This document shows, in pieces, positions 5,141 through 37,710 of a stretch of 39,479 bases of DNA. Position 1 is the first letter of the stretch; each line of letters starts with the position of its first letter. Below the pieces are notes generated by a model. That model was not told where the DNA came from and did not search any database. It saw only the letters and a list, made by a program, of their open reading frames with translations. Both the position numbers and the translations under genes were made by a program. The DNA comes from an uncultured Eubacteriales bacterium (GTDB lineage: Bacteria; Bacillota; Clostridia; Oscillospirales; CAG-272), in assembly GCA_900321265.1 (NCBI GenBank), contig ONVJ01000122.1, forward strand, positions 1 to 39,479, written 5' to 3'.

Positions 5141-5166
5141 ATCACATATTACAGGAGAATGCGAAA

Positions 5167-6222: not shown

Positions 6223-6278
6223 CAGGGCGCGGGCGGCAGTCAGACACGATCCGACTTATAATCGCAGGAGAATAAAAA

Positions 6279-7745: not shown

Positions 7746-7749
7746 TCTC

Positions 7750-8649: not shown

Positions 8650-8680
8650 GGCAGGGACGGGACGGGTGTCCGTACCGAAA

Positions 8681-14858: not shown

Positions 14859-14924
14859 TATAAGGGTATGATCCTTTATTTCCAACTGCATAAAAAAACA
14901 ATAATAATAATTCTGGAGGAAAAA

Positions 14925-21244: not shown

Positions 21245-21355
21245 AGGAGGAAAGCGGGAAGAAGGCCTGCTTCCGGTCCTGTCGGAATGAGCTGTTCCCG
21301 CCGGGAACCGCCGTGCTGCGGCCGGATCCGCAAGGAAGAATCCAAAACTCTGCAC

Positions 21356-21408
21356 GGGGCTGCCGAAAGACCGATTTTCACGGGTTTTTCGGCAGCTCCG
21401 CGGTTTTT
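21356..21408 (+). terminator. Intrinsic terminator ending the murA-glcK-plsY transcription unit
   Basis: GGGGCTGCCGAAA (21356-21368) pairs with TTTCGGCAGCTCC (21387-21399) as a 13-bp stem with one G-U pair. It is followed by GCGGTTTTTAT. Confidence 0.65.
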
Positions 21409-21785
21409 ATGCGGAATTAACAGAATATTCACAATTTTTGGTAATAATTGACAAAAGGCGGTTTCGGATAAGGCCGGGCGCCGGGTTTCCCCCTGATGAT
21501 GCCCTTTCCGCGGTCGTCCTTCTGACAGGCAAAATTCAGACCGTGAAGGATAACTGTTCGTCGTATTTCACAAAACGCGCTGTATGAGAGAGAGAACGGG
21601 GGCTGCCGCCCTTCTTTTTTTGCTTCAAAGGTAAATATTTATTACCTTTTGCGACGGTTATGTGAAAAAACACCGAAACAAGGTCAAGTTTGTGTGTGCA
21701 CGCGGTCAGATGACTTTCAAAACCACTCACATTAATATTGAAGTATTTTACTTATTTGCGCGCACGCGGAAATAAAAAAAATATA

Positions 21786-21815
21786 TTGACTTTCACAATC
21801 GTTTTGTGATATTAT
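21786..21815 (+). promoter_or_regulatory. Extended -10 promoter of the large SBP/Yip1/giant operon, with an operator-like inverted repeat in the spacer
   Basis: TTGACT (21786-21791), an 18-nt spacer, then TGaTATTAT (21807-21815). The spacer holds TCACA (21793-21797), 7 nt, then TGTGA (21805-21809). Confidence 0.6.
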
Positions 21816-21853
21816 ATTATTGCTTAATTATAATTTCACCGGGAGGAACCACT

Positions 21854-24800
21854 ATGGTAACGAAATTCCAGCGGTTAACTGCACTGCTGCTGGCGCTGCT
21901 GACGGCCTTGGGCTGCTTCGGCATATCCGTATCGGCTGCCGATGCGGATACCGAAGAGATCAAGATCTCCTATTCCAGCAACGCGATAGCAACTGCCAAG
22001 GAACTGCAGGAGGCGCTTTCCTACGAAGCTTATACGGCAAAGTATTCGAACGAAGCGCTCTATCCCAACGCGACCGAAGCCAAAGTCATCGACGGCACAG
22101 CCTATCTCGCGGACGGAACTACCGCGAAGGTAGAAAAGACCGAACATGACGGCAAATCGGCTCTCGAAACAGGCTCGACGGGTACCGTGGCCTACAAATT
22201 CACGCTGCCCGAGACGGCCAAATACGTGATCAGGGTCAACTACTGGCCGACCGAATCCGAGTCGTCCTCGACCTCGATCCAGAGGATCCTCAGGATCAAC
22301 GGCAAGGTCCCCTTCTCGGAGGCCTACACGATCGGCTTCACTAAGGTGTGGAAGACGGTCTACGCCCCCGAGGACGAAAATACGCTGAAGGACGGTACGG
22401 TCAGGCACTTCAGGCGCGACATCGACAACAACGAGATCCGCACCACCGCGGTGCAGCGTCCGGAATGGTGTTCCCTGACCGTAAAGGACATCGACGGATT
22501 CTACAAGGATCCTTTCGTTTTCGTCTTTGAAAAGGGCGAAAACATCATCACCCTCGAGGCGCTTGCCGAGGCGATCGCCATCGGCAGCATCGAGCTTCTG
22601 CCCTACGAAAAGGTCATGTCGTTTGACGATTACAGGGCGAAGTTCGCGTCCAAGCCCAAGGGCACCGATATCGTGAGGTTCGAGGCGGAAGAGCCCCTTG
22701 CCACCTCCACCAACACGATATACCCCGTTGAGGACAGATCCTCGGCGGTGAACAGCCCTACAGACGAGAGCCGCGTGGTCCTCAACACCCTCGGAGGTGA
22801 AAAGTGGCAGGTCTCGCAGCAGTGGGTATCCTACTCCTTTGAGGTCGCCACGTCAGGCATGTATCAGATCGTTCCCAGGTTCAGGCAGCATGTGAACGAC
22901 GGTATGTACTCCTCCCGTGCGCTTTACATCTACAGCGATTCCTCGCTGGCCCCCGGTGCAGACGGGTACTACAACGGAGTTCCCTTCGACGAGGCCCGCG
23001 AGCTCCGCTTCAACTACGATCCCGACTGGAACGCCTTCCCGCTCCGGTTCGGCAAGGTCTCGGTCGACGAAAAGGGCAACGAGATCCTTGATTACGTAGA
23101 TTGCGAATTCTACTTTGAGGCCGGCGTTACCTACACCATCAAGTTCGAGGTAACCCTCGGAACGATGGGCGAGATAGTCAGAAAGGTCCAGGCCTCGCTT
23201 GACGCCATCAACGGCGCCTATCTGAACATCATGCGTCTTACCGGCGCGTCTCCCGACGAATCCCGCGACTACTCCTTCTCGACGGTCATGCCGGATACCG
23301 TTATCCAGATCATCATCCAGTCGGGAAAGATCAGAAAGATCGCCGATGAGCTCAACTCGCTTGCCGGAGGAAAATCCTCCAACATCGCGACGCTTGAGAA
23401 GGTCGCCTGGCTGCTCGACAAGATGGGCCGCAACCCCGAGGACGAGTTCGCCAGGAACATGAAGCAGCTGAAATCCTACATAGGAAACCTCGGCACCTGG
23501 CTCTCCAACGCCAAGACCCAGCCGCTCCAGTTCGACTATATCACGATCCAGGGAGCCGACGAAAAGCTTCCGCGCGGCAAGGCTAACTTCTTCCAGTCTC
23601 TGAAGCACGAGTTCCTCAGCTTCTGGCACTCCTTCTTCAGAAACTACAACCGCATGGGTTCGATGGTCAAGGAGAGCGAGCTGAAGGAAGCTCTTCAGGT
23701 ATGGAACGCCTACGGTCGTGACCAGGCGCAGGTCATCAGAAACCTGATCAACAACGACTTCACCCCCAACACCGGTTATACCGTCGACCTCAAGCTGGTC
23801 GCCGGAGGCACGCTGCTTCCCTCGATCCTGGCCGGTCAGGGCCCCGACGCCTATATCGGACTCGGTGAGGACAACGTTATCAACTACGCCATCCGCGGAG
23901 CGCTCATCGAGATCGAGGATCTTGCCGGGTTCGCGGACCTGCTCTACTACAAGACCGATGAAAAACTGAATACCGTCTATGACGGGAACGGTGATCCGAT
24001 AAAGAACCCCGACGCTCAGTTCAATGAGGCCGCGATGCTCGTTCTCGGTATCCCGGATGCAGAAAACAAGATGCATTACTACGGTCTGCCCGAGACTCAG
24101 GCCTTCCCGATGATGTTCATACGCTCGGATATCCTTTACGAGCTCGGCATCACCACGCTCGACACCTGGGACGACCTGATCGAGGCGGCTACGATACTCA
24201 GCCAGAACTCGATGACGATCGGTCTTTCGAACGACTACAAGATCTTCCTCTATCAGATGGGAGGAACCCTCTTCGCCGACGGAGGAATGAGGATCAACCT
24301 CGATTCGAACGTCGCTCTCGATTCCTTCGAGACGATGTGCAACATGTTCACGACATACAAGCTCCCCTACAAGTACGACTTCGTCAACCGCTTCAGGACA
24401 GGCGAGATGCCGATCGGTATCGCCGGCTACAACGGCACCTACAACCACCTGATCGTCTTCGCGACCGAACTTCGCGGCGCATGGGAGTTCGTTCCCGTCC
24501 CGGGATACAGGATCACCGATCCCAAGACCGGCAAGGAGTTCATCAACAACGTCTCGGTCTCGACTGTCTCGGCGATCGTCATGATCAACGGCTGCGAAGA
24601 CAAGGACGGGACATGGGAATTCATGAAGTGGCATGTCGGCAAGGACTGCCAGGTCAACTATTCCAACGAGATGATCGCGATACTCGGCGACTCAGCCAAG
24701 CACGGCACAGCCAACATCACGGCTCTCGAAACGATGCCCTGGACGAACAAGGAAAGGGAAGCGCTGATCTCACAGTTCCAGAATCTCGCTTCGATCCCCA

Positions 24801-25267
24801 ACTATCCCGGAGCATATATCATCGGCCGTTACACCAAGTTCTCCTTCCTCGGTGCCTATAACGACGGCGACGAGCCTGTTTCCAAGCTGCTCAGCTACAT
24901 CAATATTATAAATAAGGAAATCACGCGCAAACGCGCCGAGTTCGGACTTGAGACTCTTGAAGTAGGAGAGACGCTGGCGAGCAAGCGCAAGGATCAGGCG
25001 CTTGCCGAGATAGACGCCCTCGACGCGTCTGTCGCCGCCTCCTGCTCGGCAGAGATCGCGGAGATCAAACGAGTGCTGGGTGAGATCGAGGAGAACGCCA
25101 CCTTCAAGGCATACTGCGACGATGTCTACATCGACGCTCTGAGAAAGGCCGGCAACGACCTCCTCGCCAAGGCTCCCGGCAACGAGAAGATCGAGAGCAT
25201 CTGCGAAAAGATCTCGGTCTGCGCAGACAGCCTCAAGATTTATCAGGCGTCATATCCGCTTGAGTGA
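21854..25267 (+). CDS. Secreted 1137-aa fusion: two CBM-like beta-sandwich modules, a helical linker, a type-1 extracellular solute-binding domain and a C-terminal helical tail
   Basis: The start is set at MVTKFQRL (ATG 21854), after a GGGAGGAA RBS. A signal peptide is present (...GCFGISVSA). Two modules have CBM6/35-like patterns (GTVAYKFTLPETAKYVIRVNYW; WVSYSFEVATSGMYQIVPRFRQ). The SBP-like core includes LPSILAGQGPDAYIG. Confidence 0.8.
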   Translation: MVTKFQRLTALLLALLTALGCFGISVSAADADTEEIKISYSSNAIATAKELQEALSYEAYTAKYSNEALYPNATEAKVIDGTAYLADGTTAKVEKTEHDGKSALETGSTGTVAYKFTLPETAKYVIRVNYWPTESESSSTSIQRILRINGKVPFSEAYTIGFTKVWKTVYAPEDENTLKDGTVRHFRRDIDNNEIRTTAVQRPEWCSLTVKDIDGFYKDPFVFVFEKGENIITLEALAEAIAIGSIELLPYEKVMSFDDYRAKFASKPKGTDIVRFEAEEPLATSTNTIYPVEDRSSAVNSPTDESRVVLNTLGGEKWQVSQQWVSYSFEVATSGMYQIVPRFRQHVNDGMYSSRALYIYSDSSLAPGADGYYNGVPFDEARELRFNYDPDWNAFPLRFGKVSVDEKGNEILDYVDCEFYFEAGVTYTIKFEVTLGTMGEIVRKVQASLDAINGAYLNIMRLTGASPDESRDYSFSTVMPDTVIQIIIQSGKIRKIADELNSLAGGKSSNIATLEKVAWLLDKMGRNPEDEFARNMKQLKSYIGNLGTWLSNAKTQPLQFDYITIQGADEKLPRGKANFFQSLKHEFLSFWHSFFRNYNRMGSMVKESELKEALQVWNAYGRDQAQVIRNLINNDFTPNTGYTVDLKLVAGGTLLPSILAGQGPDAYIGLGEDNVINYAIRGALIEIEDLAGFADLLYYKTDEKLNTVYDGNGDPIKNPDAQFNEAAMLVLGIPDAENKMHYYGLPETQAFPMMFIRSDILYELGITTLDTWDDLIEAATILSQNSMTIGLSNDYKIFLYQMGGTLFADGGMRINLDSNVALDSFETMCNMFTTYKLPYKYDFVNRFRTGEMPIGIAGYNGTYNHLIVFATELRGAWEFVPVPGYRITDPKTGKEFINNVSVSTVSAIVMINGCEDKDGTWEFMKWHVGKDCQVNYSNEMIAILGDSAKHGTANITALETMPWTNKEREALISQFQNLASIPNYPGAYIIGRYTKFSFLGAYNDGDEPVSKLLSYINIINKEITRKRAEFGLETLEVGETLASKRKDQALAEIDALDASVAASCSAEIAEIKRVLGEIEENATFKAYCDDVYIDALRKAGNDLLAKAPGNEKIESICEKISVCADSLKIYQASYPLE

Positions 25268-25299
25268 CCGAAGAATAATCCAAGTAAGGAGAGAAATAA

Positions 25300-26241
25300 A
25301 TGTCTAAAACAGCAACAAAGGCTGTGTCCCAAAAGGATATTTCAAGGTTTCGGTATACGCTGAAAGAGATGAACCGCAACAAGGTCGGATACGTCATGAT
25401 CGCACCCTTCATGCTCGTGTTCACCCTGTTCACCGTCGCGCCGGTCGTGGTCTCGATGGTCATAAGCTTTACGGACTTCAACCTGCTGCAGACTCCGAAC
25501 TTTGTTTTCCTGGACAACTACATCCGCCTTTTCCTTGACGACGATATCTTCCTGATCGCGATCAAGAACACATTCGTGTTCGCAGCGATAGTCGGTCCCG
25601 CCGGCTATCTGATGTCCTTTATGGTGGCCTGGTTCATCAACGAGCTCGAGCCTAAGATCAGAGCCGTCGTGACGCTCATCTTCTATGCTCCCTCGATCTC
25701 CGGCCACGTCTATCTCATCTGGGGCACACTCTTCTCCGGCGACTCCTACGGATGGGTCAACGGATTCCTCCTCAACTACAATCTTATTGACGAGGAGATT
25801 CAGTTCTTCGAAGACGCCGACTACGTCATGCCTCTGTGTATCGTTGTCGCACTCTGGATGTCGCTCGGTACCTCCTTCCTGTCCTTCATCGCCGGTCTGC
25901 AGGGCGTCGACCGTTCGCTCTACGAGGCGGGCGCCGTCGACGGCGTAAGAAACCGCTGGCAGGAACTCTGGTACATAACCCTTCCGTCGATGAGACCGCA
26001 GCTGATGTTCGGCGCTATTATGTCGATCACCTCCTCCTTCGGTTTCGGCGGAGTCGTCGACGCCCTCTGCGGAAACCCGTCGGTCGACTACTGCGCATGG
26101 ACGATCATGCATCACCTTAACGACTACGGCGGAGCGAGGTTCGAAGTCGGATATTCATCCGCGATAGCCGTCGTACTGTTTGCCATAATGATGGGCGCGA
26201 ACGCGCTGGTCAAGAAGCTGATTTCAAAGGTAGGTTCGTAG
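25300..26241 (+). CDS. ABC sugar transporter permease, MalF/UgpA-type
   Basis: 313-aa ORF with six predicted hydrophobic segments. The EAA loop is LYEAGAVDGVRNRWQELWYITLPSMRP. An AAGGAGAG RBS lies upstream. Confidence 0.9.
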   Translation: MSKTATKAVSQKDISRFRYTLKEMNRNKVGYVMIAPFMLVFTLFTVAPVVVSMVISFTDFNLLQTPNFVFLDNYIRLFLDDDIFLIAIKNTFVFAAIVGPAGYLMSFMVAWFINELEPKIRAVVTLIFYAPSISGHVYLIWGTLFSGDSYGWVNGFLLNYNLIDEEIQFFEDADYVMPLCIVVALWMSLGTSFLSFIAGLQGVDRSLYEAGAVDGVRNRWQELWYITLPSMRPQLMFGAIMSITSSFGFGGVVDALCGNPSVDYCAWTIMHHLNDYGGARFEVGYSSAIAVVLFAIMMGANALVKKLISKVGS

Positions 26242-26243
26242 AA

Positions 26244-27116
26244 ATGGCAAGATTAAGAACCAGAAAACACAAGGTAGTACTGAACCGCTCGGTCGGCGGT
26301 GACGCGGGCATAACCTTCCTGCTCGTGCTTCTCGGAGCCTTCATGTTCCTGCCGATGCTCTACGTCATCATGCAGTCGCTGAAGCCTCTTGACGAACTCT
26401 GGATGTTCCCGCCCAGATTCTACGTCGTAAACCCGACCTTCAGGAACTTCAAGGACCTCTTCGTCCTCATGAACACCTCCTGGGTCCCCTTCTCCCGCTA
26501 CATCTTCAATACGGTGTTCATCACCGTTCTTGGGACTGTAGGCAACCTCTTCTTCGGATCTCTTGCCGCCTACGCCTTCTCGAAGGTAATGTTCCCGGGG
26601 CGCAAGTGGATGTTCAAGGTGGTCCGTTCCTCGCTCATGTTCCACAAGACGGTCACCGCCGTTACGAACTTCATCATCATGAGCGCGCTGCATATGGTCG
26701 ACACCTACTGGGCGCTGATCATTCCGGCATGGGGCCACACCCTCGGCCTCTACCTGATGAAGCAGTTCATGGAATCGAACGTCACCGACGCCGTCCTCGA
26801 GTCGGCGAGACTTGACGGAGCGTCCGAGTTCAAGACCTTCTGGGTGATTGCGATGCCGATGGTCAAGCCCGCATGGCTTACCCTCATCATCTACTCCTTC
26901 CAGGATCTCTGGAACGCCGGTTCCTCGATCTACATCCACTCCGAGCAGCTCAAGTCCTTCAACTACGCGATCGGACAGATCACCGCCGGAGGTATCAAGC
27001 GTGCCGGAGCTTCGGCAGCTTCGCAGGTCATAATGATGGCGGTGCCTATACTGGTATTCGTCATAACTCAGTCAAACATCATCGAGACGATGGGATCGTC
27101 GGGAATGAAGGATTAA
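26244..27116 (+). CDS. ABC sugar transporter permease, MalG/UgpE-type
   Basis: 290-aa ORF with the EAA loop LESARLDGASEFKTFWVIAMPMVKP. It starts 2 nt after the preceding stop. Confidence 0.9.
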   Translation: MARLRTRKHKVVLNRSVGGDAGITFLLVLLGAFMFLPMLYVIMQSLKPLDELWMFPPRFYVVNPTFRNFKDLFVLMNTSWVPFSRYIFNTVFITVLGTVGNLFFGSLAAYAFSKVMFPGRKWMFKVVRSSLMFHKTVTAVTNFIIMSALHMVDTYWALIIPAWGHTLGLYLMKQFMESNVTDAVLESARLDGASEFKTFWVIAMPMVKPAWLTLIIYSFQDLWNAGSSIYIHSEQLKSFNYAIGQITAGGIKRAGASAASQVIMMAVPILVFVITQSNIIETMGSSGMKD

Positions 27117-27128
27117 GGGGGCAGCAAA

Positions 27129-29273
27129 GTGAAGTTTAAAAAGACAGCTGTTGCCGTCTTCTCGGTCGTGATCCTCGTGATCATGCTCGCGGCGATGCCC
27201 GTAAGCGCCGGAAGGACCTATCAGACCTATACCTATTCGATATCGGGTCAGGCCCTCCACTCCCCCGACGCCTACACTCCGCTGATGGAGATAGACAGCA
27301 CATACATGGGTCTGTCAAAGAATCTTGACAACCCCACAGATATCTTCGTGGACGATAAAGACAACGTCTATATTTCCGACACGAACAACAACCGGATCGT
27401 AGTTCTTGACAGGTATTTCAAATACAAGTTCGCGATCAGCGAGTTCATCAACGATCAGGGTATCCCCGACAAGCTCAACGCTCCGAACGGCGTCTTCGTC
27501 ACCTCGGACACGATCTATATCGCCGATACCAACCAGAACAGGATCGTCACCTGCGACCTTGAAGGAAACTTCCTGAGAGTCATCGCCGCCCCCGAGGACG
27601 CCCTCTTCGATACCGGCGCGGTCTACAAGCCGGTGGCGCTCGTGGTCGACTCCTTCAACAGGCTCTACATCGTTTCTTCGACTACCTATCAGGGCATCAT
27701 CGTTATGACCAGCGAGGGCGAGTTCATATCCTTCATCGGCGCCCAGAAGGTCGCGATATCCGCCTGGGACAAGCTCTGGAGAAAGATCATGAACTCGGAC
27801 CAGAGAGCCCAGACCGAGCTTCTGATAGCCTCTGAGTTCAACAACATCGATCTCAACGAAAAGGGTCTGATGTTCGTCACGACCTCCTCGATCGACAGCA
27901 AAAAGGTCGCGAGCGAGATCAAGAAGAAGACGAAATCCGGCGACTATATGCCGGTCAAGCTCCTTAACAAGTCGGGCGACGAGGTCATGCACCGCAACGG
28001 CTTCTGGCCGCCTGCGGGCGAGATCAACAATTCGGGCTCCTCATCCGACGGATCGATCAACGGCGTTTCCAAGATCATCGACGTCGCCTCGGGACCTGAG
28101 TTCACTTGGTCCATCATCGACACTCTCCGCCAGAAGGTGTTCACCTATGACGAGGAGGGCAACCTGCTCTTCGCCTTCGGCGATTCGGGCTCTCAGCTCG
28201 GAAACCTGGTCAGCATCCAGTCGATCGACTATATGTCCGACTCAAAGCTGCTCGTTCTCGACAAGACGAACAAGAATATCACGGTATTCCAGAGGACAGA
28301 ATACGGAGACATCCTCATCAACGCTCTCACGAACCAGAACTCCCGCCAGTATGACCGCGCGATAGACGACTGGACCGAGATCCTGAAGAGAAACTCCAAC
28401 TTCGACGTTGCCTACATCGGCATCGCCGACGCCCTCTACCGCAACGGCGAGTACAGAGAGGCGATGGAGTACTACGAGGCGGCCTATTCAAAGGGCGGCT
28501 GGTCCGACTCCTACAAGGAGATCAGAAAGGACTGGATCTCGAGATACGTGCTCCTGATCCCGCTCTTCGTGATCATAATCATAGCGGCCCTCGTAATATT
28601 CTTCAAATACGCGGGCAAGGTCAACAAGCGCGCAGAGACTTCGGGCAAGAAGAGGACATTCGGTGAGGAGCTGCTCTTCGCCTTCCACCTCATCTTCCAT
28701 CCCTTCGACGGCTTCTGGGATCTGAAGCACGAGAAGCGCGGCTCGGTCAGAGCTTCGCTCGTCTTCGTGCTCATCACGATCCTGGCGGTCTTCTACCAGG
28801 ACATCGGCTCGGGCTACCTTGTTAATCCGCAGGGCAGATATGCCGGTATCCTCAGCGACGCGCTCGGCGTCATTGTTCCCCACCTTCTCTTCGTGGTCGC
28901 CAACTGGTGCCTGACGACGCTCTTTGACGGAGAAGGAAGCTTCAAGGACGTTTTCGTCGCCGTTTCCTACTCGCTCGTGCCGATCCCGATGCTCATGATC
29001 CCGATGACGATCTTCTCGAACGTCGCCATCTCGACAGAGCTTCAGCTCGTCAACTTCATCAACTCGGTCGGAATGATATGGGCCTTCCTGCTCATCTTCC
29101 TCGGCACGATGGTGACGCACGACTATTCGATCGGCAAGAATATCATAACCACCGTCGGAACGATAATAGCCATGGCGTTCATCATGTTCGTCGCCATCCT
29201 GTTCACGACTCTCGTCGGAAAGATGGTCAGCTTCATTACCAACATCATCGTCGAGATCAACTATCGACTGTAA
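27129..29273 (+). CDS. NHL-repeat beta-propeller, TPR and Yip1-domain polytopic membrane protein
   Basis: 714-aa ORF with a GTG start after an AAGGGGG RBS. It has a signal peptide or anchor. NHL-like repeats include DIFVDDKDNVYISDTNNNRIVVLD and GVFVTSDTIYIADTNQNRIVTCD. The TPR-like segment is AYIGIADALYRNGEYREAMEYYEAAY. The C-terminal ~230 aa hold a TM helix plus a five-helix Yip1-like block. Confidence 0.75.
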   Translation: MKFKKTAVAVFSVVILVIMLAAMPVSAGRTYQTYTYSISGQALHSPDAYTPLMEIDSTYMGLSKNLDNPTDIFVDDKDNVYISDTNNNRIVVLDRYFKYKFAISEFINDQGIPDKLNAPNGVFVTSDTIYIADTNQNRIVTCDLEGNFLRVIAAPEDALFDTGAVYKPVALVVDSFNRLYIVSSTTYQGIIVMTSEGEFISFIGAQKVAISAWDKLWRKIMNSDQRAQTELLIASEFNNIDLNEKGLMFVTTSSIDSKKVASEIKKKTKSGDYMPVKLLNKSGDEVMHRNGFWPPAGEINNSGSSSDGSINGVSKIIDVASGPEFTWSIIDTLRQKVFTYDEEGNLLFAFGDSGSQLGNLVSIQSIDYMSDSKLLVLDKTNKNITVFQRTEYGDILINALTNQNSRQYDRAIDDWTEILKRNSNFDVAYIGIADALYRNGEYREAMEYYEAAYSKGGWSDSYKEIRKDWISRYVLLIPLFVIIIIAALVIFFKYAGKVNKRAETSGKKRTFGEELLFAFHLIFHPFDGFWDLKHEKRGSVRASLVFVLITILAVFYQDIGSGYLVNPQGRYAGILSDALGVIVPHLLFVVANWCLTTLFDGEGSFKDVFVAVSYSLVPIPMLMIPMTIFSNVAISTELQLVNFINSVGMIWAFLLIFLGTMVTHDYSIGKNIITTVGTIIAMAFIMFVAILFTTLVGKMVSFITNIIVEINYRL

Positions 29274-29292
29274 AGGCAGAAGGAGAATTGAA

Positions 29293-32200
29293 ATGAAGAA
29301 AATAATTGCAATGACCCTGTCTGTCATCATCCTCGTCGCGATGCTCATCGTCGACGTCGGGGCCTACGCGGTCGATCTGGTCTTCGAGATCGATTCCAAG
29401 ACAAAGAAGCCGACAGACACCGTCGATTACAAATCCACCCTTGAGCAGTACCTCACTCTCGAGTTTGCCACTGCCGAGGATAAGCTGGCTTCGATGGAGA
29501 TGCTGCTCGAAAAAGACGGGTATCAGCTCTGGGCCGACAGGCTGACCGGCGAGGTCGCCACCAAGAACCTCTCTTCGGGTCAGATCCTCTTCTCGAACCC
29601 CTATGACGTCGGAGCCAAATATCCCTCCAAGCAGGGACCGTCGGATTCCACCAAGAAGAAGCTGATGTCCCAGCTCATGGTGAGATACGTCGACAACGAT
29701 ACCGAGAAGGAGATGTACTCCTTTGAAGAGGCCGCGATGAACGGCCAGATCAAGATCAAGAACATCAAGAACGGTATCCGCGTCGAATACTCCATCGGCC
29801 GTGAGGAGACCAGAATGCTGGTCCCGAAGGTCATAGAGAAGACCCACTTCGAGACCGAGATCCTCGAGCCCTTCGCGAACGAGATCAACGAGATCTCCCG
29901 CGATTCCGGCCTTATCGAACTCAACTGGGTAGACTACTTCCCGGTATCGAAGAGAAAAGAAGCGGTCCCGGATTCGGGCGGAAACTCGCTCTGGTTCAAC
30001 TTCATGCAGCTCCTCGCCTACTATCAGTACAAGGCGACCGAAGCCTGCGCGACAGAACCCGAGAAGAAATCTCTGGTAGCCGCCTATCCCATCTGTAAGA
30101 AAATGAACGTCTACGTCTTCTCTACAGACGCTACGACGACAGAGACGATGAGGATAGAGAACTACATCAAGACCTACGCTCCCTCATACACCTACGAAAT
30201 GCTCGAAGCCGACCATGCTCTCACCGAGTATGAAGGCTCCGACAAGAACCCCGCGCTCTTCAAGGTCGCGCTGGAGTATACCCTTGACGAATGGGGCATG
30301 TCCTTCCGCTGCCCGGTCAACGGTCTGAGATTCGACGAATCGCTCTATCAGCTCGTCTACATCAGCCCGCTTCAGTATATGGGCGCCGGAGCCAACTACC
30401 TGCTCGGAGACAAGGCCGAGAAGTTCACAGGCTATAACTTCTTCCCGGACGGATCCGGCACACTCTTCCGTCACGAGGACCTCGCGACGAACAACACGAC
30501 CACGATCAACGCAAAGGTCTACGGAGCCGACTTCGCCTACAACAACATAAGCGGGACCCACTCCGAGACCGTCCGCTACCCGGTATTCGGGATCGTTTCC
30601 AACTACCATGACATCCGTCAGTCGGTAGAGAAGCAGCTGGTCGCGGAAGAGATCAGGGATCCGAACACCGGCGAAGTGCTCTCCCCCGCGGAATACGAGG
30701 AAGTCGAAGTCGACTATACTTATAATGAAGACCGCGGATTCGTGGCCATCATCGAGGAGGGCGACGCCCTCGCCGAGCTGTCCACATACCACGCGGGCTC
30801 GCTCAGCAAGTACAACTCGATAAGCATGCTCTTCTATCCCAGACCCAAAGACTCATACAACCTCGCCAACGCGATCTCGGTCGGCGCAAACGCCACCTGG
30901 ACGGTCGTCTGCTCGAGAAAGTATGTCGGCAACTACAAGGTCAGGTACATTATGCTCACCGACCGGACCATTGCCGAGGAAAAGGGACTGGAGAACACAT
31001 ACGAGCCTACCTGGATGGGCATGGCGACTGCGTACAGAGATTACCTGACCTACAAGGGCGATCTCCAGAGGCTTGAGTCCTCCGACGTTTCCGCCGACAT
31101 TCCCGCCTATATCGAGACCTTCGGCGCGATCGAGACTGTTGAAAAGATCATGTCGATCCCGGTAAACACGATGGCAGCGCTGAGCTCCTTCGAAAATATC
31201 AAGACGATGTATGACGAGCTCTCCGCCGAGGGAGTCGGCAACATCAAGTTCAAGCTCACCGGATACGCCAACGGCGGTATGTACGCCTCGATCCCCTACA
31301 GACTCAAGTGGGAGAAGGTCGTCGGCGGCGCCGAAGGATACAAAGATCTTGTCAGCTATGCGAAGCAGAAGGGCTTCCAGGTATTCCCCGACTTCAACTT
31401 CGCATATGTCAGATCGAGCACCAACAAGGCGTTCGACGGACTTACATTCAAGAAGCATATAGTCAAGTCGATCAACAACACCTATATGTCAAAGAGGTAC
31501 TACAGCGCCACGAGACAGACGATGATCGGACGCTTCGACCTCTGCGTATCCCCCGCATACTACTCTCACTTCTATGAGAAGTTCAATCAGAACCTGCTGA
31601 AATACTACGGGGACGGAGTGGACAAGACGATCTCCATCGCATCCCTCGGAACCGCCCTCAACTCCGACTTCGACGAGGATGAGCCTTACAACCGCGAAGA
31701 CTCGAAGAAGCAGACGATCGAGGCGGTAAAGGAGATCGGAGACAAGTATGACTACGTAATGACCGAAGGCGCCAACGCCTACGTCTGGAAATACGTAGAC
31801 TACATACTCAATGTCCCGCTCGATTCCAGCCGCTACACAAGGTCGAGCGCATCGGTGCCCTTCATCGGTGTCGTTCTTCACGGCAGCAAGCAGTTCGCCG
31901 GCACGCCGCTCAACATGGACGGCAACATAGGCTACAGCCTGCTGAAAGCGATCGAGAACGGCGCGGGAGTCTACTTCATCCTGGCTTACCAGAACTTCGC
32001 CAAGCTGAAGGAAGACTTCGTGCTCAGCGAGTACTACTCGGTCAGATACGATATCCTTAAGAACGACGTCGTCAAATACTACACGCTGATCAACGACCTG
32101 ACGAAGGATCTGCAGCTTGAGCTCATCACCTCGCACGAGTTCCTCACCGGCGAACGCGTGCCCGATCCCGATGAGGTCATAGCCGACGCCGCAGAGGCTC

Positions 32201-35200
32201 AGAGGCTTCTTGAAGAAGAGGCCAAGGCGGCCGAAGAGGCAGCCGAGAAAGCCAGAGTCCAGAGCCTGCTCAACGGACGTGTCAACGCCGCCGACAGCGC
32301 CGCCAACTGCCTGCTGCAGGTCAACGGCTTCTACAATCAGGCGGTCGCCAATGACGAGGGCAGCTGCTCGGTCGCCATAAACGGAAACGTGACGGTGACG
32401 ATCGGTATGAAGACCCTTGTCAATCAGGTCATCGAGACTTCCGCTGCAAGAGCCGCAGCTCAGACGCTCAATGACGAGAAATACGACGATGACAAGCTGA
32501 AAGCCGCGATCCTTGAGGCCTGGACCGAGATCAACGATCCCTTCAGCGCCCATATGAAGAGCGGCAGCAACGGCGCGTATGCCGCGATCCTCAGCACCTA
32601 TGAGAAGGCAAACGCCTCCTATACAAACAACGTCAACACCGCGGCAACCAGAAAAGAAGCCTACGACACTGCCGTTGAGAACGCGGTCAGAGCGGGTATC
32701 GACAAGATCCCCGAACTCTACGCCGCTTACAAGGAGAACGCGACAGAAGAAAATCTTCAGGCTCTGCTGCAGTATGCCGGGACTCTCGCGGACGCGGAAA
32801 AGTATGTCGAGCTGATCGCAAAGATCGCCGAGACCACGGCTGAGATCTCCGGACTCGCTACCGCGTATAAAGAAGATGCCGCTTACAAGGCACTCGAGGA
32901 GGCAAAGGCAGCAAGGGAACAGAATCTTAAGGATGCCGAAGCCGCCGACAAGGCCAGCGTAAACGAGCTGAAAGCCATTCAGAGCAATCCCGCCGGACAT
33001 ACCGCCGAGGAGATCGCCAGAGCCCAGGCATACACCGACGCTGTTGCCGCGCTTGCCGACGCTCAGGCGGAGGTCAAGGCAAGGATCAGTTATCTGAAGC
33101 TTGTCGACACCAGTGCCAAAAAGGCTCTCTCGACAGTGCCCGCAGGCTCCGACGAGCTGACCAAGCTTGAGCAGCTCATCGCGGATGCCGAAAAGGAGCT
33201 CGAGGAGCTCAACGATTCCGACAATACCACGAATCCCTACAATGCCGCCGTTATCTCCGCCCAGGCAGCTCTTGACGCCTTCACGCCCGCGACCGGCGCC
33301 GCAAGGACCGAGTCCGAAAAGGCGGACAAAGCCCTGAAGGATTACGAGGACAACTACAAGGCGACATACACCGAATCCGCCGCATATAAGGCCGCCGAGG
33401 CGAAGAAGCAGGGCTATGAGACCGAACTCGCTGCTCTGGAAGAGAAGTTCTCGAATATCGCTCCGGTACGCGCCCTGCTCGAAAAGTTCGTTTCCGCCAT
33501 GGAGGCGAGAAATGAAGCAGCCGCGAAGAGGACGACTCTTGAAAACAGCTATGCGTCCAACGCCGAATACATCAAGCTTCAGGACGCTCAGGACAAGGCC
33601 AATTACAACTTCACGGTAGTATCCGAAAAGCTTCTCGCCGCTATCGAAGAGGACGAGGAATACATCGCTCTCAAGAAGAAGGTGGAGGAGACAAAGGCAG
33701 AGCTTGAGAAATACACGCTCGGATATCTCGACGAGCTTGCCTACGCTGAGATCCAGGAAAAGCTTGAGGATGCCAAGGCTGAAGTAGAAGCTCTTGAAAC
33801 GGCATACCTCGAGGACGAAGAGTACAAGAAACTCTACGCGGCCTTCGAGACCGCAGAGAAGGAGCTCGACGCGGTAAGAACCGAGGCAGACTCGATCGCT
33901 TCCGCCGAGAAGCTGACGGTCACCGACGCGTTTATCGACAAGATCTCCAAAGCGGTTTCCGACTACGCCGCAGCAAAGTCCGCCCTCGATAAATACAATG
34001 AGGCGTTTGAGACAGAGCTGAAGGACAGCAAAGAATATAAGGAAGCCCTGTCCGAACTCGAGACGATCGAAAAAGAGGAAAAGGCGTTTATCGACGAGTT
34101 TATCGCTGAGCTCGACCAGGCCGCGATCGACTCAAGATCCGAAGAGAAGCCGGAAGAAACACTCGGAGGCAAATACGCGATCGCCCGCGACGCCTACGAC
34201 ACCGCGAAAAAATACCTCAATTATTTTGACGGAACGACTTCTGTGCCGAACACCGTCAAGGACGCTGTCGTTTATTCCGAGAAGGTAAAGACCATGGCCG
34301 AGTACACCAAGGCGGAATCCGAAAAGAAAGCCGCCCAGGACGCGATGGCGCTCTTCACCTCCGACTACGGAACAAAGCTCAAAGCCACGAAGGAAGAGAT
34401 CATCTCTACCATCACCGATCCTCAGCTGAAGGAGTACAACGCTCAGTATCAGGAGGCCAACGCCGCCTACTCCGCCGCCACGACCGAGATAACCGATACC
34501 TCGAAGGCACTCAGAGAATATGACAAGACCAGCGGCCCCGCGGTATACAACGCCGCCAACAGCTACTATACGGCTCTCGGCAATGTCAACACCGCGAGGA
34601 TCAACGCGGAGAAGGAACTGAAACACTCCGAACTGAGCGGATTCAAGGCTGCTTACGACGAGGACTCCGCCGCCTACGCGAAGATCTCGGGCAGACTTGA
34701 AGAGGTCAGGACCGAATCTGAGACTGCCGCGGAGGATTACAAGGTCGCTTCCGCCGATCTGACAAAGGCCACAAAGGCCTCCAACGACGCCATCAAGGCG
34801 GTCAGAGACCAGATCAACAGGATCACCGGCACGATAGTTCCCAGACTGAACTACTACGTCAAGGAGATGCTGAAGACGGTCGACGACTCCAATCTTGCCG
34901 TCGAAGTCCTTGGAAGTTCTCCCGACTATTCCGATCAGCTCAAGGAAGACGTGAAGGCCGCCAACAAGATCGCGGTCGACACCGAGAAGGAAGTCAGAGA
35001 GCTTTCCGACAAGGCGATCGCCTCGGCGAAGCACGCGCTTGAGACCGCATCCTCGATCATCGAGATAACCACCGAGATCAGCGATCCCTACAATCCTTCA
35101 GAGGGTTCGGGATCCGAAGAGACCGGAGACGACGAGGAAGAAGAGAACACCGTTACCAAGTACACCGACAACAGCGGAAACATCGTCGCTGTCGGATACT

Positions 35201-35364
35201 CAAACGGCGTCATGTTCCTCATCAACTACAACTATTTCGACGTTGTGACTGTTTACAACGAAGTCAGCTACACACTTCCCGCTTACGGCGGCTACAGGAT
35301 CAACCCTGACGGCTCCGTCAACTCTTTCTCAACATTCTTTGTGTTAGGAGGGATTGAAGAATGA
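29293..35364 (+). CDS. 2023-aa secreted or anchored giant: a ~930-aa globular alpha/beta domain (possibly DUF5696/GH-like), a ~970-aa A/E/K/Y-rich helical region, an acidic linker and a ~70-aa beta-rich C-terminal domain
   Basis: This is one uninterrupted ORF. A GAAGGAGA RBS lies upstream. The N-terminal hydrophobic segment is IIAMTLSVIILVAMLIVDVGAYA. The stop overlaps the next ATG (ATGA, 35361-35364). Domain limits were read from the translation: the helical region spans about nt 32160-35070. Confidence 0.85.
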   Translation: MKKIIAMTLSVIILVAMLIVDVGAYAVDLVFEIDSKTKKPTDTVDYKSTLEQYLTLEFATAEDKLASMEMLLEKDGYQLWADRLTGEVATKNLSSGQILFSNPYDVGAKYPSKQGPSDSTKKKLMSQLMVRYVDNDTEKEMYSFEEAAMNGQIKIKNIKNGIRVEYSIGREETRMLVPKVIEKTHFETEILEPFANEINEISRDSGLIELNWVDYFPVSKRKEAVPDSGGNSLWFNFMQLLAYYQYKATEACATEPEKKSLVAAYPICKKMNVYVFSTDATTTETMRIENYIKTYAPSYTYEMLEADHALTEYEGSDKNPALFKVALEYTLDEWGMSFRCPVNGLRFDESLYQLVYISPLQYMGAGANYLLGDKAEKFTGYNFFPDGSGTLFRHEDLATNNTTTINAKVYGADFAYNNISGTHSETVRYPVFGIVSNYHDIRQSVEKQLVAEEIRDPNTGEVLSPAEYEEVEVDYTYNEDRGFVAIIEEGDALAELSTYHAGSLSKYNSISMLFYPRPKDSYNLANAISVGANATWTVVCSRKYVGNYKVRYIMLTDRTIAEEKGLENTYEPTWMGMATAYRDYLTYKGDLQRLESSDVSADIPAYIETFGAIETVEKIMSIPVNTMAALSSFENIKTMYDELSAEGVGNIKFKLTGYANGGMYASIPYRLKWEKVVGGAEGYKDLVSYAKQKGFQVFPDFNFAYVRSSTNKAFDGLTFKKHIVKSINNTYMSKRYYSATRQTMIGRFDLCVSPAYYSHFYEKFNQNLLKYYGDGVDKTISIASLGTALNSDFDEDEPYNREDSKKQTIEAVKEIGDKYDYVMTEGANAYVWKYVDYILNVPLDSSRYTRSSASVPFIGVVLHGSKQFAGTPLNMDGNIGYSLLKAIENGAGVYFILAYQNFAKLKEDFVLSEYYSVRYDILKNDVVKYYTLINDLTKDLQLELITSHEFLTGERVPDPDEVIADAAEAQRLLEEEAKAAEEAAEKARVQSLLNGRVNAADSAANCLLQVNGFYNQAVANDEGSCSVAINGNVTVTIGMKTLVNQVIETSAARAAAQTLNDEKYDDDKLKAAILEAWTEINDPFSAHMKSGSNGAYAAILSTYEKANASYTNNVNTAATRKEAYDTAVENAVRAGIDKIPELYAAYKENATEENLQALLQYAGTLADAEKYVELIAKIAETTAEISGLATAYKEDAAYKALEEAKAAREQNLKDAEAADKASVNELKAIQSNPAGHTAEEIARAQAYTDAVAALADAQAEVKARISYLKLVDTSAKKALSTVPAGSDELTKLEQLIADAEKELEELNDSDNTTNPYNAAVISAQAALDAFTPATGAARTESEKADKALKDYEDNYKATYTESAAYKAAEAKKQGYETELAALEEKFSNIAPVRALLEKFVSAMEARNEAAAKRTTLENSYASNAEYIKLQDAQDKANYNFTVVSEKLLAAIEEDEEYIALKKKVEETKAELEKYTLGYLDELAYAEIQEKLEDAKAEVEALETAYLEDEEYKKLYAAFETAEKELDAVRTEADSIASAEKLTVTDAFIDKISKAVSDYAAAKSALDKYNEAFETELKDSKEYKEALSELETIEKEEKAFIDEFIAELDQAAIDSRSEEKPEETLGGKYAIARDAYDTAKKYLNYFDGTTSVPNTVKDAVVYSEKVKTMAEYTKAESEKKAAQDAMALFTSDYGTKLKATKEEIISTITDPQLKEYNAQYQEANAAYSAATTEITDTSKALREYDKTSGPAVYNAANSYYTALGNVNTARINAEKELKHSELSGFKAAYDEDSAAYAKISGRLEEVRTESETAAEDYKVASADLTKATKASNDAIKAVRDQINRITGTIVPRLNYYVKEMLKTVDDSNLAVEVLGSSPDYSDQLKEDVKAANKIAVDTEKEVRELSDKAIASAKHALETASSIIEITTEISDPYNPSEGSGSEETGDDEEEENTVTKYTDNSGNIVAVGYSNGVMFLINYNYFDVVTVYNEVSYTLPAYGGYRINPDGSVNSFSTFFVLGGIEE

Positions 35365-36347
35365 CTACCGACCTTCAGCTAAACAAGACGGTCAGTGCCC
35401 CCAAGAAGGCAGTAAAAAAGAAAAAGCGCGCTTCTTCCCTCGACAGGAGAAAGGCGCGCGCCGGATGGTGGTTCGTAATGCCCTTCATAATCGGTTTCCT
35501 GACCGTTTATCTTCCGGTAATATTCGATTCCATCAGATACTCGTTCAGCCATATCAAGATCACGTCGGGCGAAGGGTTCATAATTGAAAATGTCGGATGG
35601 GCGAACTACAATGAAGCTCTGTTCGTCAACCCGAACTTCGTACGGACTCTTCTGACCGGTCTTGGAGAACTCGCCTTCGATATCCCCGCCATCATTCTGT
35701 TCTCGCTCTTCATGGCGGTCCTTCTGAACCAGAAGATGGTAGGCCGCGCGCTCTTCCGCGCCATATTCTTCATCCCCGTTATCCTTGCGACAGGTATCAT
35801 GGAGTCGATCGACTCTCAGAACCTCGTCGGTACGATGATGGATGATACCGACGGAATCGCGGACGGCACCGGACAGTCAACGGCGACAGACATTGTTTCG
35901 GCGATCGATATCGAACGATTGTTCGCAAACATGAGAGTCGGAACCGAACTCGTCGAATATGTTGTCGGCGTCGTTAACAAGATCTACAACATAGTAAACC
36001 GCTCGGGCGTTCAGATGCTCATATTCCTTGCCGGACTTCAGTCGATATCGCCCGCCATCTACGAGTCCTGCCAGATCGACGGCGCGACCGCCTGGGAGAC
36101 CTTCTGGAAGATCACCTTCCCTTTTTTTTTTAATGATACGGCGACCACCGAGATCTACACCGTCATCGACTCGTTCACGACAGATTCCAACAGGGTCATG
36201 AAGTTCATTGCGGGTATTTACGTTCAGTCGAACGGACAGGAGGTCAGCTCGGCGATGTCATGGATGTACTTCCTGATAGTCATCGTCATCATAGCGCTGG
36301 TTTCCGCGATCCTCTCGGCCTTCGTATTCTACCAGAGAAGAGACTGA
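35361..36347 (+). CDS. ABC sugar transporter permease, MalF-type (divergent)
   Basis: 328-aa ORF with the EAA loop IYESCQIDGATAWETFWKITFP. It has a basic N-terminal tail. A T10 run lies at 36122-36131 and is in frame. Confidence 0.85.
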   Translation: MTTDLQLNKTVSAPKKAVKKKKRASSLDRRKARAGWWFVMPFIIGFLTVYLPVIFDSIRYSFSHIKITSGEGFIIENVGWANYNEALFVNPNFVRTLLTGLGELAFDIPAIILFSLFMAVLLNQKMVGRALFRAIFFIPVILATGIMESIDSQNLVGTMMDDTDGIADGTGQSTATDIVSAIDIERLFANMRVGTELVEYVVGVVNKIYNIVNRSGVQMLIFLAGLQSISPAIYESCQIDGATAWETFWKITFPFFFNDTATTEIYTVIDSFTTDSNRVMKFIAGIYVQSNGQEVSSAMSWMYFLIVIVIIALVSAILSAFVFYQRRD

Positions 36348-36364
36348 GAAAGGAGGAAGTTAAG

Positions 36365-37492
36365 ATGAATGCACAGGATACCGCTCCGAAAATCATGAAG
36401 GAGTCAAAGAACAAGATCAGAGTCGAGTTCGAACGCACTCCGCTCAAGGAAAGACTCAAGGCGAAATTCATCAATATGGCTTTCGTCACCGACGTCGTTT
36501 GGTACATATTCAGACTCATACTCCTCCTCGGGATCGCGTATATCGTGCTGTTTCCTTTCTACAGCAAGATCGCCGGTTCCTTCATGGGCAGAGACGATTT
36601 CGTCGACGTGACCGTCATGCTCATTCCCAAGAACTTCTCGCTTGACATGTACAAGTTCATAGTTCTTGAGAACCATTATTTCGAGGCCTTCGGCAACACT
36701 CTGCTGCTTGCCGGATCGACTGCACTTATCCAGGTGTTTATCTGCTGCCTTATCGGATACGGACTCGCGAAGTTCAAATTCAAGGGCAACAAGTACGTCT
36801 TCCTGGCCGTCATCCTGACGATGGTCGTGCCTCACCAGACCCTGCAGCTTTCTCTCTTCATGAAGTTCAGATTCTTCGACATATTCGGCATCATCAAGTT
36901 CCTTTCGGGGCACGCGAGAGTCGGAGAGGTCGGATGGATCAACGACATTCTCAAATCGATCAACATTTTCGGCTCAGAGAGCAGCAACAAGCTGATCAAG
37001 GGCATCATAAGCGACGGAGCGCTCAACCTGAACAACTCCTTCATGCCCCTGATCGTGCTCTCGCTCACCGGTCTCGCCTTCAAGAACGGCCTGTATATCT
37101 TTATGCTCCGCCAGTTCTTCCGCGGCGTTCCCGACGAACTTGAGGAGTCGGCGTATATCGACGGATCGGGCGTCTTCAGGACATTCCTGCAGATCATAAT
37201 TCCTCTGTCGGTGCCGATGATGATAACCGTCTTCCTGTTCGCCTTCTCATGGCAGTGGACTGACGACTTCTATACGAGGCTATTCTTTACCACGCATAAG
37301 ACGGTGCTGATGCCGGATATCGTCGCGATCCCGCAAACTCTCGAGACCAGCTACGCCGGACAGAACCTCTACTACTCGGCTATCAGAAACACCTGCGGCA
37401 TCATGATCATCTTCCCGCTGGTCATCATCTACGCCTTCCTCCAGAACTTCCTGGTACAGGGCATAGAGAGATCCGGACTTACCGCCGATTGA
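36365..37492 (+). CDS. ABC sugar transporter permease, MalG-type with an ~80-aa insertion
   Basis: The start is set at MNAQDTAPK (ATG 36365), after an AGGAGGAAG RBS. The EAA loop is LEESAYIDGSGVFRTFLQIIIPLSVP. At 375 aa it is longer than the usual ~280-300 aa. Confidence 0.85.
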   Translation: MNAQDTAPKIMKESKNKIRVEFERTPLKERLKAKFINMAFVTDVVWYIFRLILLLGIAYIVLFPFYSKIAGSFMGRDDFVDVTVMLIPKNFSLDMYKFIVLENHYFEAFGNTLLLAGSTALIQVFICCLIGYGLAKFKFKGNKYVFLAVILTMVVPHQTLQLSLFMKFRFFDIFGIIKFLSGHARVGEVGWINDILKSINIFGSESSNKLIKGIISDGALNLNNSFMPLIVLSLTGLAFKNGLYIFMLRQFFRGVPDELEESAYIDGSGVFRTFLQIIIPLSVPMMITVFLFAFSWQWTDDFYTRLFFTTHKTVLMPDIVAIPQTLETSYAGQNLYYSAIRNTCGIMIIFPLVIIYAFLQNFLVQGIERSGLTAD

Positions 37493-37519
37493 TGAGGCTC
37501 ACCGCTTACAACTGATTAT

Positions 37520-37551
37520 TGCGGCCCCCGCCCTGAAGGACGGGGGCCGCA
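37520..37551 (+). terminator. GC-rich hairpin ending the large operon
   Basis: TGCGGCCCCCG (37520-37530) and CGGGGGCCGCA (37541-37551) are exact complements around a 10-nt loop. No clear T-run follows. Confidence 0.5.
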
Positions 37552-37602
37552 GCATTGTCCGGGAAGAAAGCGGGCATGATTTTTCCGGTATCAAAAAAAG
37601 AC

Positions 37603-37631
37603 TATACAAAAATTTAAAAATATGATATAAT
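37603..37631 (+). promoter_or_regulatory. Extended -10 promoter for rlmB
   Basis: TATACA (37603-37608, a weak -35), a 17-nt spacer ending in TGa, then TATAAT (37626-37631). Confidence 0.45.
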
Positions 37632-37710
37632 ATATACTATGCCAGTATAACCGGGACCGGACCGCCGGTCTTTTGGGAAAAACGGCTGACCGAAAGGCCT
37701 GGGGGCAAGA

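Follow-up and report, generated by a model that had tools for sequence, protein, structure and literature searches.

We analyzed a contig of 39,479 nucleotides (nt) from an uncultured Eubacteriales bacterium (ONVJ01000122.1 of GenBank assembly GCA_900321265.1), called here the window, and an operon of seven plus-strand genes within it (genes 1 to 7; Table 1). The operon encodes a large solute-binding protein (SBP) fusion, two pairs of ATP-binding cassette (ABC) permease subunits (the A pair, genes 2 and 3, and the B pair, genes 6 and 7), and, between the two pairs, a Yip1-domain membrane protein (gene 4) and a giant DUF5696 protein (gene 5). An earlier note made by a model from the sequence alone had described seven open reading frames (ORFs) with Shine-Dalgarno-like sites; our coordinates, the gaps of 32, 2, 12, 19, -4, and 17 nt from gene 1 through gene 7, and a GGAGG-like ribosome-binding site before all seven starts agree with that description. 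At the single negative gap, the start of gene 6 overlaps the stop of gene 5 (ATGA). The deposited gene calls of assembly GCA_016291705.1 agree with genes 1 to 5, which is the extent of that locus.

The promoter-like site ahead of gene 1, which had been called the only good promoter, was the top plus-strand promoter match within positions 21000 to 38000. The gap of 600 nt 5′ of the operon (21245-21853) had been described as noncoding, and this is only partly right: the promoter is there, but the gap is not empty, because it also holds the hairpin with a T-run that ends the plsY unit. Besides that hairpin, the gap contains AT-rich promoter-like sequence at about 21420-21460, and there may be a small transcription unit or leader between the hairpin and the promoter-like sequence. 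At the other end of the operon, the GC-rich hairpin proposed as its terminator has the predicted stem (12 to 14 bp, GC-rich, inside a 108-nt fold with z = -2.5), but no T-run follows directly, as an intrinsic terminator would have, and our terminator scan missed the hairpin because there is no adjacent U-tract. An Rfam scan of the window returned no element. Pfam and NCBIfam scans identified no ABC ATPase in the operon or among the scanned window ORFs, and no regulator or sequence-recognizable glycoside hydrolase (GH) in the operon; the note had likewise seen neither an ATPase nor a regulator. It had also seen no second SBP gene, which is true within the operon but not of the window, where one lies at 6279-7745.

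Table 1. Features of the operon, its proteins, and the rest of the window
Feature	Coordinates	Strand	Description
Gene 1	21854-25267	+	1137-amino-acid (aa) SBP fusion, secreted or N-terminally anchored
Gene 2	25300-26241	+	PermA1, MalF/UgpA-like ABC importer membrane subunit, EAA loop
Gene 3	26244-27116	+	PermA2, MalG/UgpE-like ABC importer membrane subunit, EAA loop
Gene 4	27129-29273	+	714-aa NHL-TPR-Yip1 membrane protein
Gene 5	29293-35364	+	2023-aa N-terminally anchored DUF5696 protein (the giant)
Gene 6	35361-36347	+	PermB1, divergent MalF-like, EAA loop, extra extracytoplasmic loop
Gene 7	36365-37492	+	PermB2, divergent MalG-like, EAA loop, extra loop
Promoter-like site	21786-21815	+	Sigma-70 type: TTGACT, 18-nt spacer, TATTAT, extended TG
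Terminator-like hairpin and T-run	21598-21613	+	Closes the upstream plsY unit and separates the operon from it
GC-rich hairpin after gene 7	37520-37551	+	Terminator-like, no U-tract
Two β-sandwich modules	22061-23158	+	Gene 1 residues 70-435 (70-250, 270-435), weakly CBM35/Golvesin_C-like
Helical bundle	23165-23518	+	Gene 1 residues 438-555, between β-sandwiches and SBP domain (model)
SBP domain	23693-24943	+	Gene 1 residues 614-1030, CUT1-type oligosaccharide binding (Pfam and Foldseek)
C-terminal helical bundle	24974-25249	+	Gene 1 residues 1041-1132, specific to the gut-Clostridia clade
DUF5696 body	30223-32148	+	Gene 5 residues 311-952, β-sandwich and (β/α)8 barrel
α-Helical insertion	32170-35151	+	Gene 5 residues ~960-1953, Ala/Glu/Lys rich, inside the DUF5696 domain
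Terminal β-strands	35152-35322	+	Gene 5 residues ~1954-2010, conserved, complete the DUF5696 domain
Assembly artifact	36122-36160	+	Inside gene 6; T10 and exact 29-nt Illumina P5 adapter match
GH4	269-1591	+	Carbohydrate cluster member
Unknown ORF	1643-3184	+	513 aa, no Pfam match; carbohydrate cluster member
Big_3 surface protein	3269-5077	+	Carbohydrate cluster member
BNR/sialidase-like protein	5167-6222	+	Carbohydrate cluster member
Weak SBP_bac_8 protein	6279-7745	+	Carbohydrate cluster member
DHDPS/NanA-like lyase	7750-8649	+	Carbohydrate cluster member
MBL-fold protein	8621-9997	+	Carbohydrate cluster member

We tabulated the neighborhoods of related genes. When one genome was scanned for each GTDB species, at least 564 matches were confirmed, nearly all in gut metagenome-assembled genomes labeled Clostridia, Eubacteriales, Oscillospiraceae, or Ruminococcus. 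Of the 82 gut-clade loci examined, 63 carry all seven genes on the same strand in the order SBP-A1-A2-Yip1-DUF5696-B1-B2; the patterns at the other 19 fit truncation where contigs end, with none at odds with that order. We also recovered nine distant loci. Searching annotated plasmids with tblastn yielded two of them (pNP243 of Butyrivibrio fibrisolvens D1 and a Paenibacillus cellulosilyticus plasmid), and seven more came from Paenibacillus mucilaginosus, Neobacillus kokaensis, Cohnella luojiensis, Cohnella thermotolerans, two uncultured genomes, and one Logan assembly. All 63 complete gut-clade loci and all nine distant loci share the order and strand, making 72 complete loci without an exception. 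In the two plasmid loci, each window operon protein had its own positional counterpart as its best match, and the annotations that the note had named as lying side by side in Paenibacillus and Clostridia (YIP1 family, DUF5696, a large SBP, permeases) are indeed adjacent there. The junctions are short, with medians across 66 to 79 loci of 42, 1, 15, 24, 18, and 17 nt, and in the Bacilli there are overlaps of a few bases between the stop and start codons of the successive Yip1, DUF5696, and PermB1 genes. What lies outside the seven genes varies between gut-clade genomes and consists of housekeeping genes (plsY, SpoU methylase, AlaRS, IscS/NifU, CysRS).

The cassette is therefore a conserved unit, as the note had supposed, fixed across two classes of Bacillota at 22 to 58% protein identity. 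The DUF5696 family itself forms 3,769 clusters at 50% identity (E ≤ 1e-3), and the species-level genomes that carry it number at least several hundred; among them are many of uncultured Clostridia from human and herbivore guts and many of cultured strains of Paenibacillus and Cohnella. It could be argued that the seven genes are only neighbors and do not build one machine, with two ordinary pairs of permeases and an SBP lying next to two unrelated proteins that are membrane bound or secreted. An extra conventional SBP gene often stands beside the distant cassettes, and in several of these loci it could pair with one of the permease sets. An invariant order in all complete loci across such sequence divergence, with short or overlapping junctions and changing flanks, makes this explanation very improbable, because a chance arrangement would not survive that much divergence.

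Gene 1 encodes a cell-surface protein that couples two CBM35-like β-sandwiches to an oligosaccharide-type solute-binding domain. The whole protein had no Pfam hit, and searches against PDB sequences gave nothing or only coiled-coil noise. When residues 600 to 1137 were searched alone, they matched SBP_bac_1 (51.5 bits; cut-off, 26) and SBP_bac_8 (50.2 bits; cut-off, 27). In the AlphaFold model of gene 1 (44 sequences; predicted local distance difference test [pLDDT] score, 83.3), Foldseek matched the SBP part to a sophoro-oligosaccharide SBP, MalE, CbpB, and a cycloalternan SBP, with target-normalized template modeling (TM) scores of 0.71 to 0.79. The SBP half of the fusion proposed in the note is thus well founded. 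The signal-peptide cysteine is not conserved among the homologues, which leaves no conserved lipobox Cys, so the gene 1 product is not a lipoprotein. The N-terminal modules are an ancestral part of the SBP.

The four permease genes (2, 3, 6, and 7) all matched PF00528 (BPD_transp_1) and the UgpA/UgpE/MalG/GlcU NCBIfam models, with genes 2 and 7 alone passing the Pfam cut-off for BPD_transp_1. Each of the four proteins carries an EAA motif, at residues 209, 186, 235, and 261, respectively; the EAA loop is the site at which a permease couples to its ATPase. The two pairs had been called duplicated, and this does not describe them correctly. PermA1 shares 54% and 44% identity with its A1 counterparts in the two plasmid loci, versus about 24 to 27% with the B1 proteins, which shows that the pairs are ancient, distinct paralogues. 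The identity between A and B permeases, about 22 to 27%, rules out a recent duplication.

Gene 6 contains an assembly artifact in which ten T residues precede an exact match to AATGATACGGCGACCACCGAGATCTACAC, a 29-nt sequence that we take to be the Illumina P5 adapter. The patch replaces native sequence of equal length, and the reading frame is therefore kept. As a result, residues ~255 to 264 of PermB1, within a transmembrane segment, read FFFNDTATTE, where all 75 of 75 related loci have M(I/L/V)(S/T)PMILVN., almost always MISPMILVN. PermB1 is almost certainly intact in the organism.

The protein encoded by gene 4 starts with a signal peptide, followed by an extracytoplasmic NHL β-propeller (residues ~40 to 395), a TPR region (~398 to 459), a transmembrane helix (474 to 492), and a Yip1 domain (520 to 689). 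The Yip1 match (PF04893) scored 56.9 bits against a cut-off of 28.6 and covered profile positions 2 to 172 of 173, and a hydropathy scan found six segments between residues 538 and 708. The NHL match (PF01436) scored 34.1 bits (cut-off, 20), and stretches of the propeller matched Pizza designer propellers, PknD, and TRIM NHL domains with E values down to 3.6e-16. The TPR matches were subthreshold. With the DUF5696 and BPD_transp_1 matches, these scores agree with the domain calls made in the note. The propeller and Yip1 domains are on one protein in the window and in loci L084, L085, L086, and L091 (Paenibacillus, Neobacillus, and Cohnella thermotolerans) and are encoded by two adjacent, overlapping genes in L083 (Butyrivibrio), L087, L088, L089, and L090 (including Cohnella luojiensis). 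Since they are naturally split at some loci, NHL and Yip1 are separable modules.

DUF5696 (PF18952) matched gene 5 with 386 bits against a cut-off of 25.6. We modeled residues 1 to 960 (41 sequences; pLDDT, 84.9; predicted TM score, 0.80) and compared the model with known structures using Foldseek. The best matches were ZgGH129, a 3,6-anhydro-D-galactosidase (5opq; E = 4.5e-22; probability, 1.00), and NagBb, an α-N-acetylgalactosaminidase of GH129 (5wzn; E of ~1e-19; probability, 1.00), followed by GH101 endo-α-N-acetylgalactosaminidases at ~1e-11 (probability, 1.00); GH31 enzymes were matched as well. On the strength of this model, we are confident that the DUF5696 body has the GH129/GH101/GH31 fold, with which it shares an N-terminal β-sandwich followed by a (β/α)8 barrel (Foldseek E values, 1e-22 to 1e-10). 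The note's statement that the operon lacks a classical GH signature holds for sequence but not for fold. Identity to these enzymes is 9 to 14%. phmmer and profile searches of the DUF5696 region against PDB sequences produced nothing or only coiled-coil noise, and GH101 or GH129-type Pfam models did not match gene 5 even at E ≤ 10. DUF5696 also differs from these enzymes in being membrane anchored, in being fixed in a transporter operon, and, in the gut clade, in carrying a helical insertion of ~1000 aa.

We examined conservation of the domain by aligning 36 sequences that represent the gut-Clostridia, Paenibacillus/Cohnella, and Butyrivibrio-type clades. Conservation among polar residues was seen at D386, D413, N508, R551, D792, R801, N828, S846, N874, E888, and H948, and the motifs FFPDGSG and YGxD in the N domain are invariant. 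D792 is kept in 34 of the 36 sequences and lies at the C-terminal end of barrel strand β4. In retaining α-glycosidases of the GH13, GH31, GH27, and GH36 type, the nucleophile is located at the end of β4, and presumably the D792 position corresponds to the nucleophile of GH129, GH101, and GH31 enzymes. Judged from the model, D792 is a candidate nucleophile, and catalysis by DUF5696 is plausible. We considered N702, which is Asp in most close relatives, as an inactivating change but dropped it, as L007 and many proteins of the Paenibacillus clade have Asn there too and the site is not conserved across the family.

The size of the giant and its coiled-coil character, which the note had stressed, are not what defines the system. 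About 1000 aa of the length are a variable α-helical insertion (18% Ala, 13% Glu, and 9% Lys) that is missing from short homologues of 747 to 880 aa. The DUF5696 proteins of Paenibacillus and Butyrivibrio (757 and 839 aa) cover the profile from position 2 or 3 to 612 and do so up to the C terminus, and a β-strand motif of ~50 residues at the extreme C terminus is kept in every gene 5 homologue. When we deleted residues 961 to 1953 from gene 5, the profile match extended from position 577 to 601 (of 612) and the score rose from 386 to 404 bits. Because its removal lengthens the match and raises the score, the helical region sits inside the DUF5696 domain. Among relatives, the insertion ranges from ~90 to ~1100 aa, with modes at ~100, 450 to 530, 840, and 1000, and DUF5696 proteins of 1800 to 2545 aa are common in the family. 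The insertion is a lineage-specific addition and not a core feature.

A self-BLAST of the insertion revealed no internal repeats. We tried an antiparallel-hairpin arrangement with a mirror-symmetry test of proline breakers, which was negative for the window protein and seven long homologues (p = 0.43 to 1.0); a symmetry that had seemed visible by eye was due to chance. The topology of the insertion suggests an out-and-back stalk, and it probably acts as a spacer or stalk. Across 53 gut-clade loci, the length of DUF5696 beyond the body correlated with that of the C-terminal helical tail of the SBP (Spearman coefficient of 0.71, calculated without phylogenetic correction).

The distant loci place the cassette in a carbohydrate context. 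In the Paenibacillus, Neobacillus, and Cohnella cassettes, the gene directly upstream of the SBP gene encodes an ABC ATPase that has OB_MalK and/or TOBE_2 domains; in P. cellulosilyticus, it is annotated UgpC. An ATPase gene adjoining the gut-clade cassettes is not conserved, being found at only 4 of 81 loci with type and position varied. This distribution bears out the note's view that a missing ATPase is normal. The regulators at distant loci are LacI, an AraC-type response regulator, or a histidine kinase/response regulator pair, and the sets of GH genes are GH43; GH26, GH113, and GH9; GH2 and GH38; GH30 and GH35; or GH95 and GH10 with an esterase. Because the distant loci add ATPases, regulators, and GHs, the cassette core belongs to carbohydrate uptake, and the pattern suggests that the core is a general-purpose uptake chassis and that the accessories determine its range of substrates.

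The cassette is best classed as a sugar importer of the ABC type to which three further conserved components have been added. It resembles CUT1 importers (MalEFGK2, UgpBAEC, and MsmEFGK with the shared MsmX/MsmK) in its cluster B/D SBP fold, in its MalF/MalG-like subunits with EAA loops, and in having its ATPase gene next to the SBP gene, as in Bacilli, or presumably borrowing the ATPase from elsewhere. It differs from them in that CUT1 importers have one permease pair and the cassette has two distinct pairs, in an SBP with ~600 extra N-terminal residues that is not a lipoprotein, and in the NHL-Yip1 and DUF5696 subunits encoded between the permease pairs. Gram-positive polysaccharide utilization loci and, in function, the Sus-like systems of Bacteroidota share with the cassette the logic of encoding surface glycan binding, glycosidases, and an importer together, but the known Gram-positive loci are variable in composition, with one SBP and one permease pair, whereas the cassette is a fixed seven-gene core with changing GHs. 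An accessory role for Yip1 proteins has a precedent in YknW, which belongs to the Yip1 family and modulates how an ABC transporter complex assembles (PMC4887032). The YknWXYZ system of Bacillus subtilis and B. amyloliquefaciens is therefore similar in having a Yip1-family accessory subunit; YknW has no NHL/TPR ectodomain, unlike the gene 4 protein.

We lean, with somewhat more confidence than doubt, toward the operon encoding a seven-subunit CUT1-type ABC complex for glycan capture, trimming, and import. The note had proposed a similar apparatus for capture, processing, and import, with the Yip1 protein as a possible membrane organizer, and our results support that proposal in part. The CBM-like modules of gene 1 would hold a glycan at the cell surface, and DUF5696 would act as a retaining α-glycosidase-like enzyme, with D792 as the candidate nucleophile, that trims or debranches the held glycan. 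The SBP would then pass oligosaccharides to the A pair. The B pair, whose genes are contiguous with those for Yip1 and DUF5696 and in Bacilli translationally coupled to them, could form a second translocation module, so that the complex would divide into an SBP/A-pair part and a Yip1-NHL/DUF5696/B-pair part. By analogy with YknW, the Yip1-NHL protein may scaffold the B-pair module. Both pairs would be driven by an MsmX/MalK-type ATPase, whose gene, found just upstream of the SBP gene in Bacilli, would here lie elsewhere in the genome, and in gut Clostridia, DUF5696 would have gained the long helical insertion, probably as a spacer or stalk.

A more far-reaching proposal is that the cassette represents a new class of ABC importer. 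The membrane-anchored DUF5696, as a glycosidase of a new family, and the Yip1-NHL scaffold would both dock, as stoichiometric subunits, on a second pair of permeases dedicated to them, with cleavage physically coupled to translocation; this would be a Gram-positive counterpart of Sus-type systems, with the insertion as a length-tunable stalk matched to the envelope. We put this forward tentatively and regard it as doubtful.

Several observations weigh against the importer reading. DUF5696 is without a sequence-level link to any GH family in the searches described above. The alignments show no clearly conserved acid/base residue: of the two candidate positions, 825 is variable (25 Asp, 11 Ser, 2 Glu, 2 Asn, and 1 Thr), and D844 is present in about two-thirds of the sequences. 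DUF5696 could thus be noncatalytic. In that case, the operon would encode a carbohydrate ABC importer in which a GH-derived DUF5696 serves as a lectin-like holder, lid, or scaffold, and the variable accessory GHs, encoded nearby or elsewhere, depolymerize the substrate. The lack of an identifiable acid/base, including the variation at 825, favors this alternative, and a generic structural part explains more easily why DUF5696 is constant while the accessory GH sets vary widely. It does not readily explain why D792 should be near-invariant, along with N828, H863, N874, E888, and R801 around the barrel, in a very divergent family; the invariant FFPDGSG and YGxD motifs fit a preserved active-site pocket, and the gut-clade cassettes have no other GH nearby. 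We consider a noncatalytic DUF5696 unlikely.

The CBM-like label is also a point on which the importer reading is exposed. CBM_35 matches of 14.7 to 19.1 bits, against a cut-off of 28, were obtained for six of eight gene 1 homologues and were absent from the window protein, and matches to Golvesin_C were likewise below threshold; in homologues, both β-sandwiches produced such hits repeatedly. Based on the model, we regard a CBM-like assignment as plausible; this half of the fusion described in the note is less secure than the SBP half. The Yip1 analogy has a limit of its own: YknYZ, which works with a membrane-fusion protein, is an exporter of the MacB type that acts against the SDP toxin and does not import sugar.

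The remaining difficulty is genomic. Gut-clade cassettes have no regulator or accessory GH and sit among housekeeping genes, and our search at the gut-clade operon found no cre site; given such a neighborhood, no substrate can be named for the window operon. These same features would fit a function in the cell's own envelope, in which a secondary cell wall or capsular glycopolymer is turned over and its fragments are reimported as constitutive housekeeping rather than foraging. The gut-clade flanks (plsY, SpoU methylase, AlaRS, IscS/NifU, and CysRS) are of that kind, the window has murA-like, ROK, and GT4-pyruvyltransferase genes nearby, and the lengths of the insertion and the SBP tail covary as if tuned to an envelope dimension. 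However, the flanks differ between genomes, and the neighborhood is therefore little informative; the length correlation was made without phylogenetic correction; and in Bacilli and Lachnospiraceae, the cores lie in regulated plant-glycan loci (GH26/GH113, GH10/GH95, GH43, or GH35/GH30, with LacI or AraC). We think that envelope recycling is quite improbable, and we retain capture, trimming, and import of a glycan as the preferred reading.

We found no papers on DUF5696, PF18952, or this gene combination in the literature searched, which did not cover all journals, in agreement with the note's view that the combination has no described function. The same literature held nothing relevant on YIP1-family proteins in Paenibacillus, on Yip1 with NHL and a permease, or on new GH families near GH129/GH101.

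The rest of the window has housekeeping genes on either side of the operon, with plsY upstream and a SpoU-type methylase downstream. A separate carbohydrate cluster occupies positions 269 to 9997 on the plus strand without accompanying permease genes; possibly this is a locus of the sialic-acid type whose SBP is an orphan. On the minus strand, positions 12480 to 14663 encode a 727-aa fusion of a GT4 glycosyltransferase and a CsaB-like polysaccharide pyruvyl transferase, which suggests synthesis of a pyruvylated cell wall glycopolymer. Besides the 513-aa member of the carbohydrate cluster (1643-3184), two plus-strand ORFs had no Pfam match, at 14868-16400 (510 aa) and 20435-21244 (269 aa); the latter overlaps the plsY stop and is probably cotranscribed with plsY.

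Among the neighborhoods of related loci, recurrent families of unknown neighbors at first appeared to accompany the cassette, and we rejected them as shadow ORFs that lie antisense to real genes (AlaRS, for example) where the DNA is GC rich. Examples are L060 16619-19447 (plus strand), L015 15996-17057 (plus), L038 88-1644 (plus), and L021 18669-19226 (minus). Long stop-free antisense frames cluster across loci and mimic conserved families, and they are a trap for ORF-based neighborhood analysis.

If the glycan capture, trimming, and import reading is correct, DUF5696 would be a new glycoside hydrolase family with a GH129/GH101-like fold, and the cassette, with its two pairs of permeases and two additional conserved subunits, would define a new architecture for ABC importers. 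It would also give bacterial Yip1 proteins their first role linked to an importer. Cultured, genetically tractable carriers of the cassette exist in Paenibacillus and in Butyrivibrio fibrisolvens D1. The combination of a fixed core with changing GHs suggests that this uptake chassis is relevant to fiber degradation in guts and soils.

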